Below, piece after piece: positions 4,611 to 18,667 of a stretch of DNA of 33,423 nucleotides. How positions within the stretch are numbered: the first letter of the stretch is position 1; the number at the start of each line of letters is the position of its first letter. Position numbers and translations under genes: made by a program. Below the pieces are notes generated by a model that searched no databases, had not been told where the DNA came from, and worked only from the letters and a program-made list of their open reading frames with translations. This stretch comes from a virus (Duplodnaviria > Heunggongvirae > Uroviricota > Caudoviricetes). The stretch lies in the IMG/VR virus record IMGVR_UViG_2563366995_000002; one strand, 5' to 3'.

Positions 4611-4743
4611 TTTTTGGGACTCCTGGCTGATTAAGTATGTCGATAAGGCGTTTCCATCCGTCACGTAATTTACGGGTGATTCGTTCAAGTAAAGATTCGG
4701 AAGGGCAGCCAGCAACAGGCCACCCTGCAATGGCATATTGCAT
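4579..4743 (-). CDS. cIII: CIII, FtsH (HflB) protease inhibitor
   Basis: Manual translation of the minus strand gives [54 protein letters not shown] (54 aa), matching lambda CIII; 3' end overlaps kil start as in lambda. Under 60 aa so absent from the ORF track. Confidence 0.85.
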   Translation of the reverse strand: MQYAIAGWPVAGCPSESLLERITRKLRDGWKRLIDILNQPGVPKNGSNNYGYPD

Positions 4744-4815
4744 GGTGTGCTCCTTATTTATACATAACGAAAAACGCCTCGAGTGAAGCGTAATTGGTAT
4801 GCGGTAACGCCGCGC

Positions 4816-14036: not shown

Positions 14037-14121
14037 AGTCAGAGATAACAATCAACTAATACTGTTTTGTTGATTTTTGCTTGTAATTGGCGTTCTGGTC
14101 TGATTTTTGTGGAGTAAGTTG

Positions 14122-14505
14122 ATGCGTGATATTCAGATGGTTCTTGAGCGTTGGGGTGCGTGGGCGGCTAATAATCATGAAGATGTGACCTGGTCGTCCA
14201 TTGCCGCCGGTTTTAAGGGATTAATTCCTTCAAAAGTAAAATCTCGCCCGCAATGTTGTGACGATGACGCGATGATCATTTGCGGGTGCATGGCCCGTCT
14301 GAAAAAGAACAACAGCGATTTACACGATTTATTAGTAGATTATTATGTATGTGGTATGACATTCATGTCACTGGCAAGTAAGCATTGCTGCTCGGATGGT
14401 TATATCGGGAAAAGGTTACAGAAGGCTGAGGGCATAATTGAAGGGATGTTAATGGCATTAGATATCCGGTTAGATATGGATATCGTTGCTAATAATTCTA
14501 ATTGA
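14122..14505 (+). CDS. Q: late antiterminator Q (phage 21 / DLP12 QuuD type)
   Basis: [24 protein letters not shown]... matches DLP12 QuuD; cysteine cluster [12 protein letters not shown]; ATG at 14122 after GGAG SD. Confidence 0.9.
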
Positions 14506-14532
14506 TATGCAATTGTTTACTAAAAGTTATTA

Positions 14533-14560
14533 AAAATGGGGCGTGGAAACGCCCCCAAAA
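14533..14560 (-). terminator. putative terminator for the porin transcript (minus strand)
   Basis: Minus strand GGGGCGTTTCCACGCCCC followed by ATTTTTAAT. Confidence 0.45.
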
Positions 14561-14641
14561 TAAAGGGTAATATATAACAGAAGGTTTATATAGTAAGAAG
14601 CAAGGTAGTGCTTCTAAAGGAAGTGGCTTGAGGGCTCCACT

Positions 14642-14684
14642 TATATGTTGCGGAGGCAAAGCCTCCCGCAACATATCTTTTTCG
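14642..14684 (+). terminator. strong rho-independent terminator between Q and the convergent porin gene
   Basis: About 14-bp stem ATATGTTGCGGAGG / CCTCCCGCAACATAT with CAAAG loop, followed by CTTTTTCG. Confidence 0.65.
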
Positions 14685-14693
14685 TAAGTCAGA

Positions 14694-15776
14694 TTAGAAC
14701 TGATAAACCAGACCTACAGCGACGATGTCGTCGGTATCAATACCAGCTGTTTTGGTAAACTTACTATCGTCAATTAAGTTGATTTTGTAATCAACAAAAG
14801 TGGACATGTTTTTATTAAAGTAGTAAGTAGCACCGACATCGACATACTTGACTAAGTCTCGGTCACCATGAACACCAAGGTCTTTACCTTTTGACTGAAG
14901 GTAAGCAACAGATGGACGCAGACCGAAGTCAAACTGATATTGTGCTACTGCTTCAAAGTTTTGTGCTTTGTTTGCAATATGGTTATTACCAAAAACGGTC
15001 ATATTCTGAGTTTCAGAATATGTGGTAGCCAGATAGATATTGTTCGCATCATATTTCAGGCCTGCAGCCCATACTTCCGCATTTTTGCCGGAGGCATTGA
15101 ATTTGCTCTTACCATAGGCGACCTGACCGTCAGTGCGATCTGATTTAGCATAGGTTGCACCCACGCCGAATCCTTCATACTCATAAGTAGTGGAGAAACC
15201 GAAACCATCACCATTGGCTTCAGTTACGTCAGTGCGGTCATTTTTACCCTGATACTGAGCAGCAAAGTTCAGGCCATCGACCAGACCAAAGAAGTCGTTG
15301 TTACGATAAGTTGCAACACCAGTAGTGCGACCAGTCATGAACACATCTGTTTGGGTCCAGGTATCACCACCGAATTCTGGCAGAACGTCAGTCCACGCAC
15401 CGATGTCGTATGCTACACCGTAGTTACGGCCGTAATCGATTGAGCCGTAATCACCAAATTTCAGGCCTGCAAATGCAAGACGGGTTTTGTCTTTGGAAGA
15501 ACCTTGAGATTCAGCACGGTTGCCTTTGAATTCATATTCCCACTGACCGAAACCAGTCAGTTGATCGTTGATTTGGGTTTCACCTTTGAAGCCAAGACGG
15601 GCATAAGTAGTATCACCATCATCTGCATCATTAGAGGAGAAGTAGTGCTTGGCATTAACTTTCCCGTATAGATCCAGCTTGTTACTGTCTTTATTATAAA
15701 TTTCAGCTGCCTGAGCAGACATCGCCATCAGTACTGATGCAGCTACAGCAGAAATTGCCACTGTTAATTTTTTCAT
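14694..15776 (-). CDS. nmpC: OmpC/OmpF-family outer membrane porin (NmpC / Lc-like), intact moron
   Basis: Signal peptide [23 protein letters not shown] then AEIYNKD..., C-terminal VGLVYQF beta-barrel signature; located between Q and the lysis cassette as in DLP12. Start taken at internal Met of ORF 14694..15836. Confidence 0.9.
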
Positions 15777-16202
15777 TGTACGCCCTTTTTTTGAACTATT
15801 ATTAAAAAATGATGTCACTGCGCGATAAATATTCATCTAATCAATGTGATTATTTCAAGATGTAAGTTTTAGTTTCTCATTTAATTTGTGAAGTAGATCT
15901 CTATTTTTATCTGAACCTTTTCTATCTAATCCTATTCATGGCTCTTGTCTGAACAAAAATAAATCTATTAGCTAATTTATATTAATGGCACTTATTTATA
16001 AGTGCTCTATAATTCTTTAGCTTAATTTAAACAAACTAAAAATAACATTGGAAATTATTAACTGGTTATTTGTTGAAGTTTTCTTATGCATTTGTGGTGG
16101 TGTTTTGAACACTCGGTGGCATTCTCACAAATATCATTTAGTAGTTTACGTACGTAAAAAATTGGTTATGCTGTTAAGAGTGGTTACTTCGTCACACAGC
16201 TT

Positions 16203-16236
16203 AAACCCGCCGTCGAGCGGGTTTTTCCATTTTTTG
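16203..16236 (+). terminator. rho-independent terminator upstream of the lysis cassette (possible tR')
   Basis: AAACCCGCCGTCGAGCGGGTTTTTCCATTTTTT. Confidence 0.6.
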
Positions 16237-16364
16237 AGTCTCGATATTAGCTGATAACCCAATACCTGAGTTATTCACTGACTCCGAATCTGTTACGTTT
16301 CTGCCTTTATTGCGATACGTAGTATCCCCTTAATTTACACCCGCTTTGTCTGCGAGGTGGGGTT

Positions 16365-16580
16365 ATGAAATCCATGGATAAGTTAACAACGGGTGTCGCC
16401 TATGGTACCTCAGCAGGTAGTGCCGGGTACTGGTTTTTACAGTTGCTCGATAAAGTCACGCCCTCACAGTGGGCGGCAATAGGTGTGCTGGGTAGCCTGG
16501 TATTTGGCCTGCTGACGTACCTGACAAACCTTTATTTCAAGATTAAAGAAGATAAGCGCAAGGCTGCGAGAGGTGAATAA
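16365..16580 (+). CDS. S: class II holin / pinholin (phage 21 S type)
   Basis: 71 aa [26 protein letters not shown]..., matches S21 / EssD. Confidence 0.9.
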
Positions 16581-17077
16581 TGCCTCCATCATTACGAAAA
16601 GCCGTTGCTGCTGCTATTGGTGGCGGAGCAATTGCTATAGCATCAGTGTTAATCACTGGCCCAAGTGGTAACGATGGTCTGGAAGGTGTCAGCTACATAC
16701 CATACAAAGATATTGTTGGTGTATGGACTGTATGTCACGGGCATACAGGAAAAGACATCATGCTCGGTAAAACGTATACCAAAGCAGAATGCAAAGCACT
16801 CCTGAATAAAGACCTTGCCACTGTCGCCAGACAAATTAACCCGTACATCACAGTCGATATACCGGAAACAACGCGCGGCGCTCTTTACTCATTCGTTTAC
16901 AACGTGGGTGCTGGTAATTTCAGAACATCGACGCTTCTTCGCAAAATAAACCAGGGCGATATCAAAGGCTCATGTGATCAGCTACGTCGCTGGACATATG
17001 CTGGCGGTAAGCAATGGAAAGGTCTCATGACTCGTCGTGAGATTGAGCGTGAAATCTGTTTGTGGGGTCAGCAATGA
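16580..17077 (+). CDS. R: SAR endolysin (lysozyme, R21 type)
   Basis: 165 aa; N-terminal hydrophobic signal-anchor-release segment [18 protein letters not shown]; T4-lysozyme-like catalytic region; matches RrrD. Confidence 0.9.
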
Positions 17078-17535
17078 ACAGAGTAACCGCGATTATCTCC
17101 GCTCTGGTTATCTGCATCATCGTCTGCCTGTCATGGGCTGTTAATCATTACCGTAATAACGCCATTACCTACAAAGCCCAGCGCGACAAAAATGCCAGAG
17201 AACTGAAGCTGGCGAACGCGGCAATTACTGACATGCAGATGCGTCAGCGTGATGTTGCTGCGCTCGATGCAAAATACACGAAGGAGTTAGCTGATGCGAA
17301 AGCTGAAAATGATGCTCTGCGTGATGATGTTGCCGCTGGTCGTCGTCGGTTGCACATCAAAGCAGTCTGTCAGTCAGTGCGTGAAGCCACCACCGCCTCC
17401 GGCGTGGATAATGCAGCCTCCCCCCGACTGGCAGACACCGCTGAACGGGATTATTTCACCCTCAGAGAGAGGCTGATCACTATGCAAAAACAACTGGAAG
17501 GAACCCAGAAGTATATTAATGAGCAGTGCAGATAG
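17074..17535 (+). CDS. Rz: Rz i-spanin
   Basis: [27 protein letters not shown]..., matches lambda Rz. Confidence 0.9.
17294..17476 (+). CDS. Rz1: Rz1 o-spanin lipoprotein embedded in Rz (+1 frame)
   Basis: Lipobox LVVVGC and proline-rich [16 protein letters not shown]; entirely inside Rz. Confidence 0.8.
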
Positions 17536-17566: not shown

Positions 17567-17860
17567 TTATTGTGAGCAATACACACGCGCTTCCAGCGGA
17601 GTATAAATGCCTAAAGTAATAAAACCGAGCAATCCATTTACGAATGTTTGCTGGGTTTCTGTTTTAACAACATTTTCTGCACCACCACAAATTTTTGCTG
17701 CATCGACAGTTTTCTTCTGCCCAATTCCCGAAACGAAGAAATGATGGGTGATGGTTTCCTTTGGTGTTACTGCTGTAGGTTTGTTTCCAACAGTAAACGT
17801 CTGTTGAGCACATCCTGTAATAAGCATTGCCAGAGCGGCAGAAAACAACATTTTTTTCAT
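17567..17860 (-). CDS. bor: Bor lipoprotein (serum resistance)
   Basis: MKKMLFSAALAMLITGCAQQTFTV..., matches lambda Bor; start at internal Met of ORF 17567..17908. Confidence 0.9.
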   Translation of the reverse strand: MKKMLFSAALAMLITGCAQQTFTVGNKPTAVTPKETITHHFFVSGIGQKKTVDAAKICGGAENVVKTETQQTFVNGLLGFITLGIYTPLEARVYCSQ

Positions 17861-18340: not shown

Positions 18341-18667
18341 ATGAAAAGACGCCTTTTACTACTTTTTCTGTTATCTGTCCTGGCAGTGGGATGCTCGCAG
18401 CAAAAAGCTGATGAGCCCCGGCAATTAGTGACGGTGTATCCACGATATCCGGAATATGCTGCAGCAAATTATATCAAGGGGCTGGTTGAGGTTAAGTTCG
18501 ATATTGGTGCTGATGGGACTGTGACACGGATCGTTTTTCTCCGCTCAGAGCCTCATAATTTGTTTCGTGATGAAGTGGTGAAGGCCATGGCGAAATGGCG
18601 ATTTGAAAAGAATCGCCCCTGTCAAGGAGTGAAGAGACAATTTATCTTTACGCCGTCACGTCCTTGA
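18341..18667 (+). CDS. putative lipoprotein with TonB C-terminal-like domain (moron)
   Basis: Signal + lipobox MKRRLLLLFLLSVLAVGC; segment YPRYPEYAAANYIKGLVEVKFDIGADGTV resembles the TonB_C fold signature. Domain call from pattern only. Confidence 0.6.
   Translation: MKRRLLLLFLLSVLAVGCSQQKADEPRQLVTVYPRYPEYAAANYIKGLVEVKFDIGADGTVTRIVFLRSEPHNLFRDEVVKAMAKWRFEKNRPCQGVKRQFIFTPSRP

Follow-up and report, generated by a model that had tools for sequence, protein, structure and literature searches.

A stretch of 33,423 nucleotides of viral DNA (Caudoviricetes, IMG/VR record IMGVR_UViG_2563366995_000002; hereafter the window) carries an intact porin gene of the nmpC/lc type in the interval between the antiterminator gene Q and the lysis genes. 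This interval, positions 14506-16364, extends exactly from the stop codon of Q to the start of the holin gene, and along the window the order is Q, porin (on the minus strand), holin, lysozyme, Rz/Rz1 and bor. Here we describe the locus and its surroundings, and show that its identity as a general porin is confirmed far beyond chance. With a high degree of confidence, we interpret it as a self-contained moron of a lambda-like prophage, with a promoter and a terminator of its own and with the late promoter pR' lying beyond the porin.

The porin is covered end to end by the Pfam profile PF00267 (Porin_1; profile positions 1-337 of 337, E 1.9e-151), and 48 solved porin chains match it at E < 1e-50, the best at about 1e-137. 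The signal peptide, cleavable and of the Sec type, is assigned a length of 23 residues (codons 15708-15776) because most mature chains of solved porins (OmpC, OmpK36, PhoE) align from residue 24, where the mature part begins AEIYNK; in the phage PA-2 lc record an identical N-terminus is assigned a signal peptide of 23 codons. The alignment also reveals the PEFGG motif of constriction loop L3 (LPEFGGDTW) and a C-terminal YQF. The open reading frame (ORF) listing gives a longer frame from an upstream ATG (14694..15836, 380 residues), and the 360-residue RefSeq start was adopted. A preliminary description of this DNA had proposed a full-length OmpC-family porin with signal peptide, encoded on the minus strand in the gap between Q and the holin gene, and the profile match and the alignment from residue 24 bear this out.

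In global alignments the protein is 90.7% identical to PA-2 Lc and equally 90.7% identical to NmpC of the Escherichia coli K-12 prophage DLP12 (qsr'), the latter reconstructed by joining its two annotated fragments; identities to OmpC, PhoE and OmpF are 62.4%, 62.5% and 58.6%. The preliminary assignment as an nmpC-like moron related to PA-2 Lc is thus upheld, by this 90.7% amino acid identity together with the common gene order. With OmpC, OmpF and PhoE the window porin shares its Pfam family, its fold family as judged by sequence, the PEFGG motif and the C-terminal Phe; it differs from them in its 58-62% identity, in being prophage-borne and in standing, reportedly, under the control of CRP, pH and other regulators. 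Identity of about 60% to solved porins suggests that it is a trimeric, 16-stranded, solute-conducting barrel of the OmpC/OmpF/PhoE family. DLP12 has the same order of genes (quuD, nmpC on the minus strand, essD, rrrD, rzpD, borD), and the likeness extends from the protein to the promoter region (93.8%) and the 3' spacer (93.7%). However, DLP12 is defective and its nmpC is recorded as a pseudogene in two pieces, with the insertion sequence (IS) IS5B lying between them, 58 bp before the stop codon, whereas the window gene is uninterrupted, as had been noted earlier, and its prophage looks complete. PA-2 (protein 2, J02580), in which the order from Q to bor is also the same, likewise has an intact porin opposite the lysis genes, with an identical signal peptide, both CRP sites and an IpeX-type sequence. 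The coordinates of the locus and of three other features of the window are collected in Table 1.

Table 1. Features of the porin locus and its neighbourhood, in window coordinates
Feature	Position	Strand	Basis
Q antiterminator gene, QuuD type, 127 aa	14122..14505	+	PF06530, E 7.7e-54; RefSeq quuD on identical DNA
Porin 3' untranslated region, corresponding to the IpeX RNA region and ending in an intrinsic terminator	14527..14693	-	Terminator scan, spacer identity, fold
Hairpin plus TTTTT, probable terminator	14643..14682	+	Sequence and folds; hairpin 14643-14676, T-run 14678-14682
Intact porin gene	14694..15776	-	360 aa; RefSeq-annotated MKKL start at 15776 on identical DNA
AT-rich divergent control region, porin ATG to pR'	15777..16144	.	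27% GC
Porin core promoter, predicted	15821..15858	-	-35 TTGAAA 15853-15858, -10 GAATAT 15829-15834, start G15823 or G15821; read from sequence
CRP site upstream of porin promoter, putative	15884..15904	-	21/21 identical to site annotated in PA-2 lc record J02580
Late promoter pR', inferred	16145..16179	+	-35 TTTACG 16145-16150, 16-nt spacer, -10 TATGCT 16167-16172, start ~A16179
Initial transcribed region of pR' (putative), AGTGGTTACTTCGTCACACAG	16179..16199	+	Aligns with 933W putative qut; 21/21 identical to PA-2 CRP site 1067-1087
Intrinsic terminator, candidate tR'	16203..16235	+	Terminator scan; stem 16203-16224, T-run to 16235
Lysis cassette, first late genes	16365..17535	+	Pfam; RefSeq names essD, rrrD, rzpD
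Holin, P21/S21 type	16365-16580	+	
Lysozyme	16580-17077	+	
Rz; Rz1	17074-17535; 17294-17476	+	
Lambda cIII thermoregulator RNA match	4698-4756	-	RF01804, 88.5 bits, E 1.6e-20
bor homologue	17567-17860	-	RefSeq 'increased serum survival lipoprotein Iss' on ATCC 11775 prophage
Small ORF with TonB C-terminal domain	18341-18667	+	PF03544, E 1.1e-12; RefSeq 'TonB family protein'

The porin gene is composed of two parts with different histories. DNA identity to lc is 96-100% over gene nucleotides 1-450 and 64-88% over nucleotides 451-1080, so that the first 150 codons are nearly identical to Lc/NmpC, and in comparison with K-12 nmpC, too, nucleotides 451-1080 come from a diverged allele (64-88% DNA identity). 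Over codons 151-360 synonymous divergence from lc is saturated (dS 1.7) and nonsynonymous divergence is low (dN 0.093, dN/dS about 0.055; overall range 0.04-0.055). The window protein and Lc differ in 34 alignment columns, made up of 29 substitutions and five gap positions in two short indels, and most of these differences fall in four patches (residues 182-187, 217-227, 263-267 and 335-347) that are probably external surface loops. Among phage records the 3' half of the gene falls into at least three allele classes, with approximately 100%, 85% and 78% DNA identity. Because dS is saturated, dN is low, the changes are patchy and the alleles form classes, we read the gene as a recombinant mosaic under strong purifying selection, apparently an old functional surface protein with alleles shuffled by recombination. 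Disrupted variants are rare among the IMG/VR relatives; one of these (L040) has a duplication of about 20 bp in the 3' part of the porin gene, near window positions 14835-14854.

On its 3' side the porin transcript would end at a minus-strand intrinsic terminator, detected by the terminator scan about 140 nt past the porin stop codon (stem 14538-14555, T-run 14532-14536, ATTTTT). The interval from the stop codon to this terminator agrees in position and size with the published IpeX RNA, and because of this agreement we take the porin 3' untranslated region (about 165-167 nt) to correspond to IpeX, with a putative effect on OmpC/OmpF. The 167-nt spacer is 93.7% identical to the matching spacer of K-12 DLP12 and PA-2, from which the window departs by a few loop substitutions and by one bulge whose position in the first helix is shifted. 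Its predicted fold of four stem-loops plus the terminator has a minimum free energy of -53.6 kcal/mol (z = -6.5), and none of 200 shuffled sequences was as stable. Rfam has no IpeX family, and gave no match in the region at gathering thresholds and chance-level matches alone at lax thresholds (E 0.36 and 0.53). IpeX has been described as a 167-nt RNA from DLP12 that arises within the transcript of the porin promoter and controls OmpC without obvious complementarity (PMC12197685; PMC3617542; PMC3333887), and ipeX RNA has been measured in clinical isolates (PMC7177473).

The conservation and strong structure of this spacer, along with the report that IpeX acts on OmpC within the porin transcript (PMC12197685), would also suit a different emphasis, in which the selected product is mainly the IpeX RNA repressing OmpC/OmpF and the porin ORF is chiefly a vehicle that drives or stabilises the 3' untranslated region. 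We regard this as quite unlikely, in view of the strong purifying selection on the ORF itself and the confinement of its amino acid changes to four short patches, as expected of a working surface protein.

The same spacer carries a second hairpin, this one followed by a T-run on the plus strand, which the simple terminator scan missed owing to a one-base bulge. This element (Table 1) probably stops transcription leaving Q, and the same stem, in the minus-strand reading, serves as the first IpeX helix. When a strong terminator was added between quuD and nmpC in K-12 it had no effect, which the authors of that study credit to the intrinsic terminators already there (PMC11677980). In one IMG/VR relative (L051) an IS-like insertion of about 700 bp, with an overlap of about 10 bp, sits at window positions 14673-14682, inside the IpeX hairpin.

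The position of the late promoter determines how the porin stands to the lysis genes. Compared by blastn with the Shiga toxin (Stx) phages H-19B and Sakai Sp5, the window gives exactly two collinear blocks: the 5' 335 nt of Q (14120-14454, 75-77% identity) and 85 nt at 16142-16226 (78-79% identity, E 1e-14). The two are 86 nt apart in the Stx phages and 1,687 nt apart in the window. In the 933W GenBank record the columns of the second block are marked as pR' (putative late promoter), a putative qut and a possible rho-independent terminator. In Sakai Sp5 the pR' transcript has been delimited by a differential RNA sequencing (dRNA-seq) start and a Term-seq 3' end lying 258 nt apart (PMC7547250); taking that 3' end to be the T-run of the second terminator, as found in the current Sakai record, we obtain a start at an A 7 nt after TATCAT, preceded by TTTACG and a 16-nt spacer. 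In the window the matching arrangement (TTTACG, 16 nt, TATGCT, then TAAGAGTGGTTAC) is common to K-12 DLP12 and phage PhiR40_1. The hairpin that follows is homologous to the first 'possible rho-independent terminator' of 933W and is the sole terminator-like site that the scan finds from the pR' start to the holin gene.

The Q protein itself is related: it is 96% identical to K-12 QuuD and 76-80% identical to the Q proteins of 933W and H-19B over their common 120 residues, and it distantly resembles the Q21 structures 6P18/6JNX (E 4e-8). The Q proteins of the Stx phages have an extra 20-residue tail whose coding sequence overlaps pR'. For the DLP12 lysis cassette, references given in PMC7918800 describe a Q-like protein that acts via a regulatory region adjoining essD. 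The consensus scan found no promoter-like sigma-70 site on the plus strand between Q and the porin (14506-14693). Because the mapped and annotated Stx block is homologous, Q is related and no promoter site stands beside Q, the late promoter is most likely at 16145-16172, with a start near 16179 and a Q-sensitive terminator at 16203-16235, and late transcription would begin beyond the porin. From this placement it follows that the porin most likely lies upstream of pR', divergent from it and convergent with Q, outside the late transcription unit, and that the right-hand hairpin would belong to the late operon. The predicted porin and pR' starts are about 355 bp apart, and the pR' start lies 186 nt upstream of the holin gene.

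These results revise parts of the preliminary description. The porin had been called antisense to the late operon, a view that is not supported, with a pR'-like block beyond the porin (16142-16226) and no promoter-like site after Q; of the two options left open there, a late start downstream of the porin is favoured and antisense read-through of the porin is not. Hairpins do occur on both sides of the gene, as stated (14538-14555, 14643-14676 and 16203-16224), but the right-hand one, on the plus strand, is best taken as the Q-antiterminated terminator of the late operon and not as an insulator of the porin. The preliminary description also made no mention of IpeX, to which the porin 3' untranslated region corresponds and through which the lc transcript reportedly lowers OmpC.

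The arrangement usually described for Q-dependent cassettes, in which pR' follows Q directly (bioRxiv 10.1101/651190), would lead to another layout: a late promoter directly downstream of Q, a Q-modified polymerase reading antisense through the porin, and the plus-strand hairpins at 14643-14682 and 16203-16235 as successive tR' terminators. A plus-strand hairpin with a T-run does indeed occur 140 nt after Q. Even so, this layout is extremely improbable given the empty promoter scan of the spacer, the lack of blastn homology between the spacer and the pR'/StxS region of the Stx phages, and the existence of a single pR'-like block in which -35, -10 and start context are all conserved; furthermore, transcription from the quuD side in K-12 does not reach the IS5 inside nmpC (PMC11677980). 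A pairing by MAFFT of the spacer between Q and the porin with StxS/tR' of H-19B was rejected, blastn with 7-nt words showing no similarity.

With pR' placed beyond the porin, the likeness to 933W, H-19B and Sakai Sp5 comprises the -35 and -10 elements, the start context TAAGAGTGGTTAC, the first hairpin and the related Q. In the Stx phages, however, the end of Q runs into the module, and tRNAs and stx follow the module as cargo that the late transcript includes, whereas in the window 1.7 kb of antisense cargo parts Q from the pR' module and the second terminator (+258) is absent.

The layout is widespread. A 2.5-kb segment of the window recurs at 100% identity in ATCC 11775 (the E. coli type strain), S88, APEC O1 and many more. 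Of 5426 complete E. coli genomes, 2395 contain 80% or more of it, a count that pools intact and IS-split copies by joining pieces up to 1.75 kb apart; 36 phage records contain the segment as well. The prophage is the same in ATCC 11775, where it adjoins icd and reaches from the integrase gene to those of the tail. Over 95% of its first 25 kb, the window matches the isolated phage PhiR63_2 at 99.9% identity; this phage, ev017 and others deposited as phage genomes with named hosts suggest that viable phages carry the layout.

The IMG/VR set comprised 80 loci with a Q 97-100% identical to that of the window, 71 of which extend far enough to be judged. All 71 keep the order Q, porin (minus strand), pR' block, with 1636-1676 bp from Q to the pR' block (2350 bp where one locus has an insertion), usually with the same holin about 223 bp beyond it and, in nearly every case, with a full-length porin ORF. 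In one locus (L031) the homology to the window extends no further than 16226, immediately past the hairpin, and in three others (L046-L048) the pR' block is kept and the holin is different. Because the layout is kept throughout and breaks after the hairpin in the first of these and the holin is exchanged in the others, Q, porin, pR' and hairpin appear to travel together as a unit.

Other cargo was seen after related Q genes. Phage PhiR40_1 (L011, 1540-2600) has a related Q, then an antisense ORF of 148 residues without Pfam match, then the same pR' block. Lambda_2E9 (L002/L012, 3016-4074) has a related Q followed by an antisense Blc lipocalin, a YbgA-like gene (DUF1722/2-thiouracil desulfurase) and an AraC-type regulator; the pR' motif was searched for there and not found. 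The P1-like plasmid prophage P7 (AF503408.1, 25531-26195) has an annotated nmpC with about 75% DNA identity to the 3' half of the window porin, and the P1-related phages JL22 and phi456 give similar matches, so that porin cargo is not confined to lambdoid phages.

The promoter of the porin is expected in the AT-rich region that separates the gene from pR'. GC content is 25-31% within 15800-16200, as compared with 50% for the whole window and 43.5% for the porin gene, in agreement with the AT-rich region that the preliminary description had placed upstream of the porin (15840..16200). In K-12, 5' rapid amplification of cDNA ends (5' RACE) showed that a sigma-70 promoter starting at a 'G' is active no more than 199 bp from the nmpC ATG, a finding with which deletion and replacement experiments concur; CRP activates this promoter, PnmpC, at two sites, and OmpR, IHF and MprA repress it (PMC11677980). 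The 210-bp stretch upstream of the window porin ATG is 93.8% identical to the K-12 nmpC promoter region. Both CRP sites of the PA-2 record are conserved in the window at 21 of 21 positions (15884-15904, with the core TGTGA-N6-TCTCT, and 16179-16199). The second of these (AGTGGTTACTTCGTCACACAG) has one good CRP half-site alone (TCACA/TGTGA). In one IMG/VR relative (L026) homology is lost at window position 15842, just upstream of the predicted porin core promoter.

Taken together, an own minus-strand terminator, a Q-to-pR' distance far greater than that of the Stx phages and an atypical GC content are moron traits of the cassette. Several observations weigh against our interpretation. The core hexamers of the predicted porin promoter are weak and absent from the list of the consensus scan, which gave no minus-strand porin promoter and one plus-strand site in the AT-rich region (15985-16013), its total of three sites against 7.6 expected in shuffled sequences amounting to no signal. 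The details of IpeX given here come from reviews; work by Castillo-Keller in 2006 reportedly found that the PA-2 lc transcript, with the same 3' sequence, inhibits OmpC. Polymerase evidently passes the first hairpin in the Stx phages, the pR' transcript of 258 nt ending at the second terminator, whereas the scan of the window gave no second terminator before the holin gene; for both of these reasons it is uncertain how efficiently 16203-16235 would act as the sole tR'. No convincing sigma-dependent pause element or Q-binding repeat was recognised in the late module, and the window sequence aligned at the pause position reads TACTTC, without the final T of a -10-like hexamer. Finally, lytic growth may bring N-modified transcription from pR across the porin in the antisense direction. 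As a separate observation on the first hairpin of the Stx phages (Sakai Sp5 L005, 946-1203; 933W L010, 764-786), it looks canonical, with seven T's at about +25 to +50, and is at most a partial terminator.

The extreme AT-richness of the control region raises the further alternative that the porin is intact yet effectively silent in lysogens, for instance through xenogeneic silencing of a promoter with 27% GC, and is thus cargo that has no phenotype in ordinary conditions. To judge by the title of a 1998 paper by Prilipov, the intact nmpC of E. coli B is reportedly a 'quiescent' porin gene, which counts for silence and against a lysogen-expressed porin, and the repressors OmpR, IHF and MprA reported for PnmpC point the same way (PMC11677980). 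We consider silence unlikely, while leaving it an appreciable chance. In K-12 the promoter gave a 5' RACE fusion transcript that was the sole detectable ins5A mRNA among 11 IS5 copies (PMC11677980), and the measurement of ipeX RNA in clinical isolates (PMC7177473) also speaks for expression. Strong and old purifying selection (dN/dS about 0.05, dS saturated) and the full-length ORF in nearly all of the 71 related loci likewise count against a silent gene.

On the interpretation of a self-contained, expressed moron, a CRP-dependent sigma-70 promoter within the AT-rich DNA, at about 15820-15905, would drive leftward transcription of the porin, and the transcript would end near 14530. As published work on DLP12 and PA-2 suggests, this transcript would supply a phage-type porin to the outer membrane of the lysogen, and its IpeX tail would lower OmpC and OmpF post-transcriptionally, so that porin and IpeX together may remodel the surface and permeability of the host. 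In PA-2 lysogens Lc is expressed and OmpC is lowered, and such remodelling would be the classical explanation for the loss of OmpC, the PA-2 receptor. On the other side, pR' would fire rightward into the terminator at 16203-16235, passage being open only to Q-modified RNA polymerase, which would then reach the holin gene at 16365; the 1.7-kb porin cassette would thus separate Q from the promoter on which it acts, a promoter abutting the Q stop codon in the Stx phages. The plus-strand hairpin at 14643-14682 would probably halt unmodified transcription leaving Q before it collides with that of the porin. Most of this mechanistic picture comes from published work on near-identical sequences; here it is supported by homology only.

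A wider reading, in our estimate rather unlikely, is that the gap between Q and pR' serves as a dedicated slot for cargo, holding genes expressed in the lysogen clear of the late transcript, in contrast to the stx slot on the downstream side of pR'. It fits the varied antisense cargo found after related Q genes (porin and IpeX here, the 148-residue ORF of PhiR40_1, the Blc lipocalin of Lambda_2E9), and it fits a hairpin at 14643-14676 that would serve both strands, as Q-exit terminator on one and first IpeX helix on the other. The first 21 bases of the pR' transcript coincide with a CRP-type half-site, which could in principle couple late-promoter escape or porin expression to cyclic AMP. If such a slot exists, N-modified early transcription across the porin would turn porin and IpeX off at induction.

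Elsewhere in the window, the match to the lambda cIII thermoregulator RNA represents the usual 5' region of a lambda-type cIII gene. Within the late region but on its opposite strand, the bor homologue (bor/iss) follows Rz as a second cargo gene expressed in the lysogen. Between bor/iss and the terminase genes lies a small ORF with a lipoprotein-like N-terminus and a TonB C-terminal domain, which may be a further cargo gene.

Much of what is found at this locus is already known: the gene, its prophage location, the IS5-split copy in K-12, the promoter, the IpeX tail and the adjoining Q-controlled lysis cassette have all been described, and the porin gene is said to go back to work of the 1980s by Highton (1985) and Blasband (1986). 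Hundreds of complete genomes, along with deposited phage genomes, carry annotations on identical DNA; NCBI names the porin 'ompC: porin OmpC' there, and phage records use OmpD, NmpC or OmpC. With 62% identity to K-12 OmpC, the RefSeq label 'porin OmpC' is a naming artefact, and it can mislead work on porins and antibiotic permeability in clinical E. coli. The copy is common in complete E. coli genomes, including those of the extraintestinal pathogens S88 and APEC O1. Because an intact copy is very common in the genomes searched, outer-membrane phenotypes established in K-12, where the porin is broken, may not transfer to other E. coli. For the phages themselves, a late promoter beyond the cargo would leave the porin insulated from late transcription, whereas the stx genes are driven by the late promoter.

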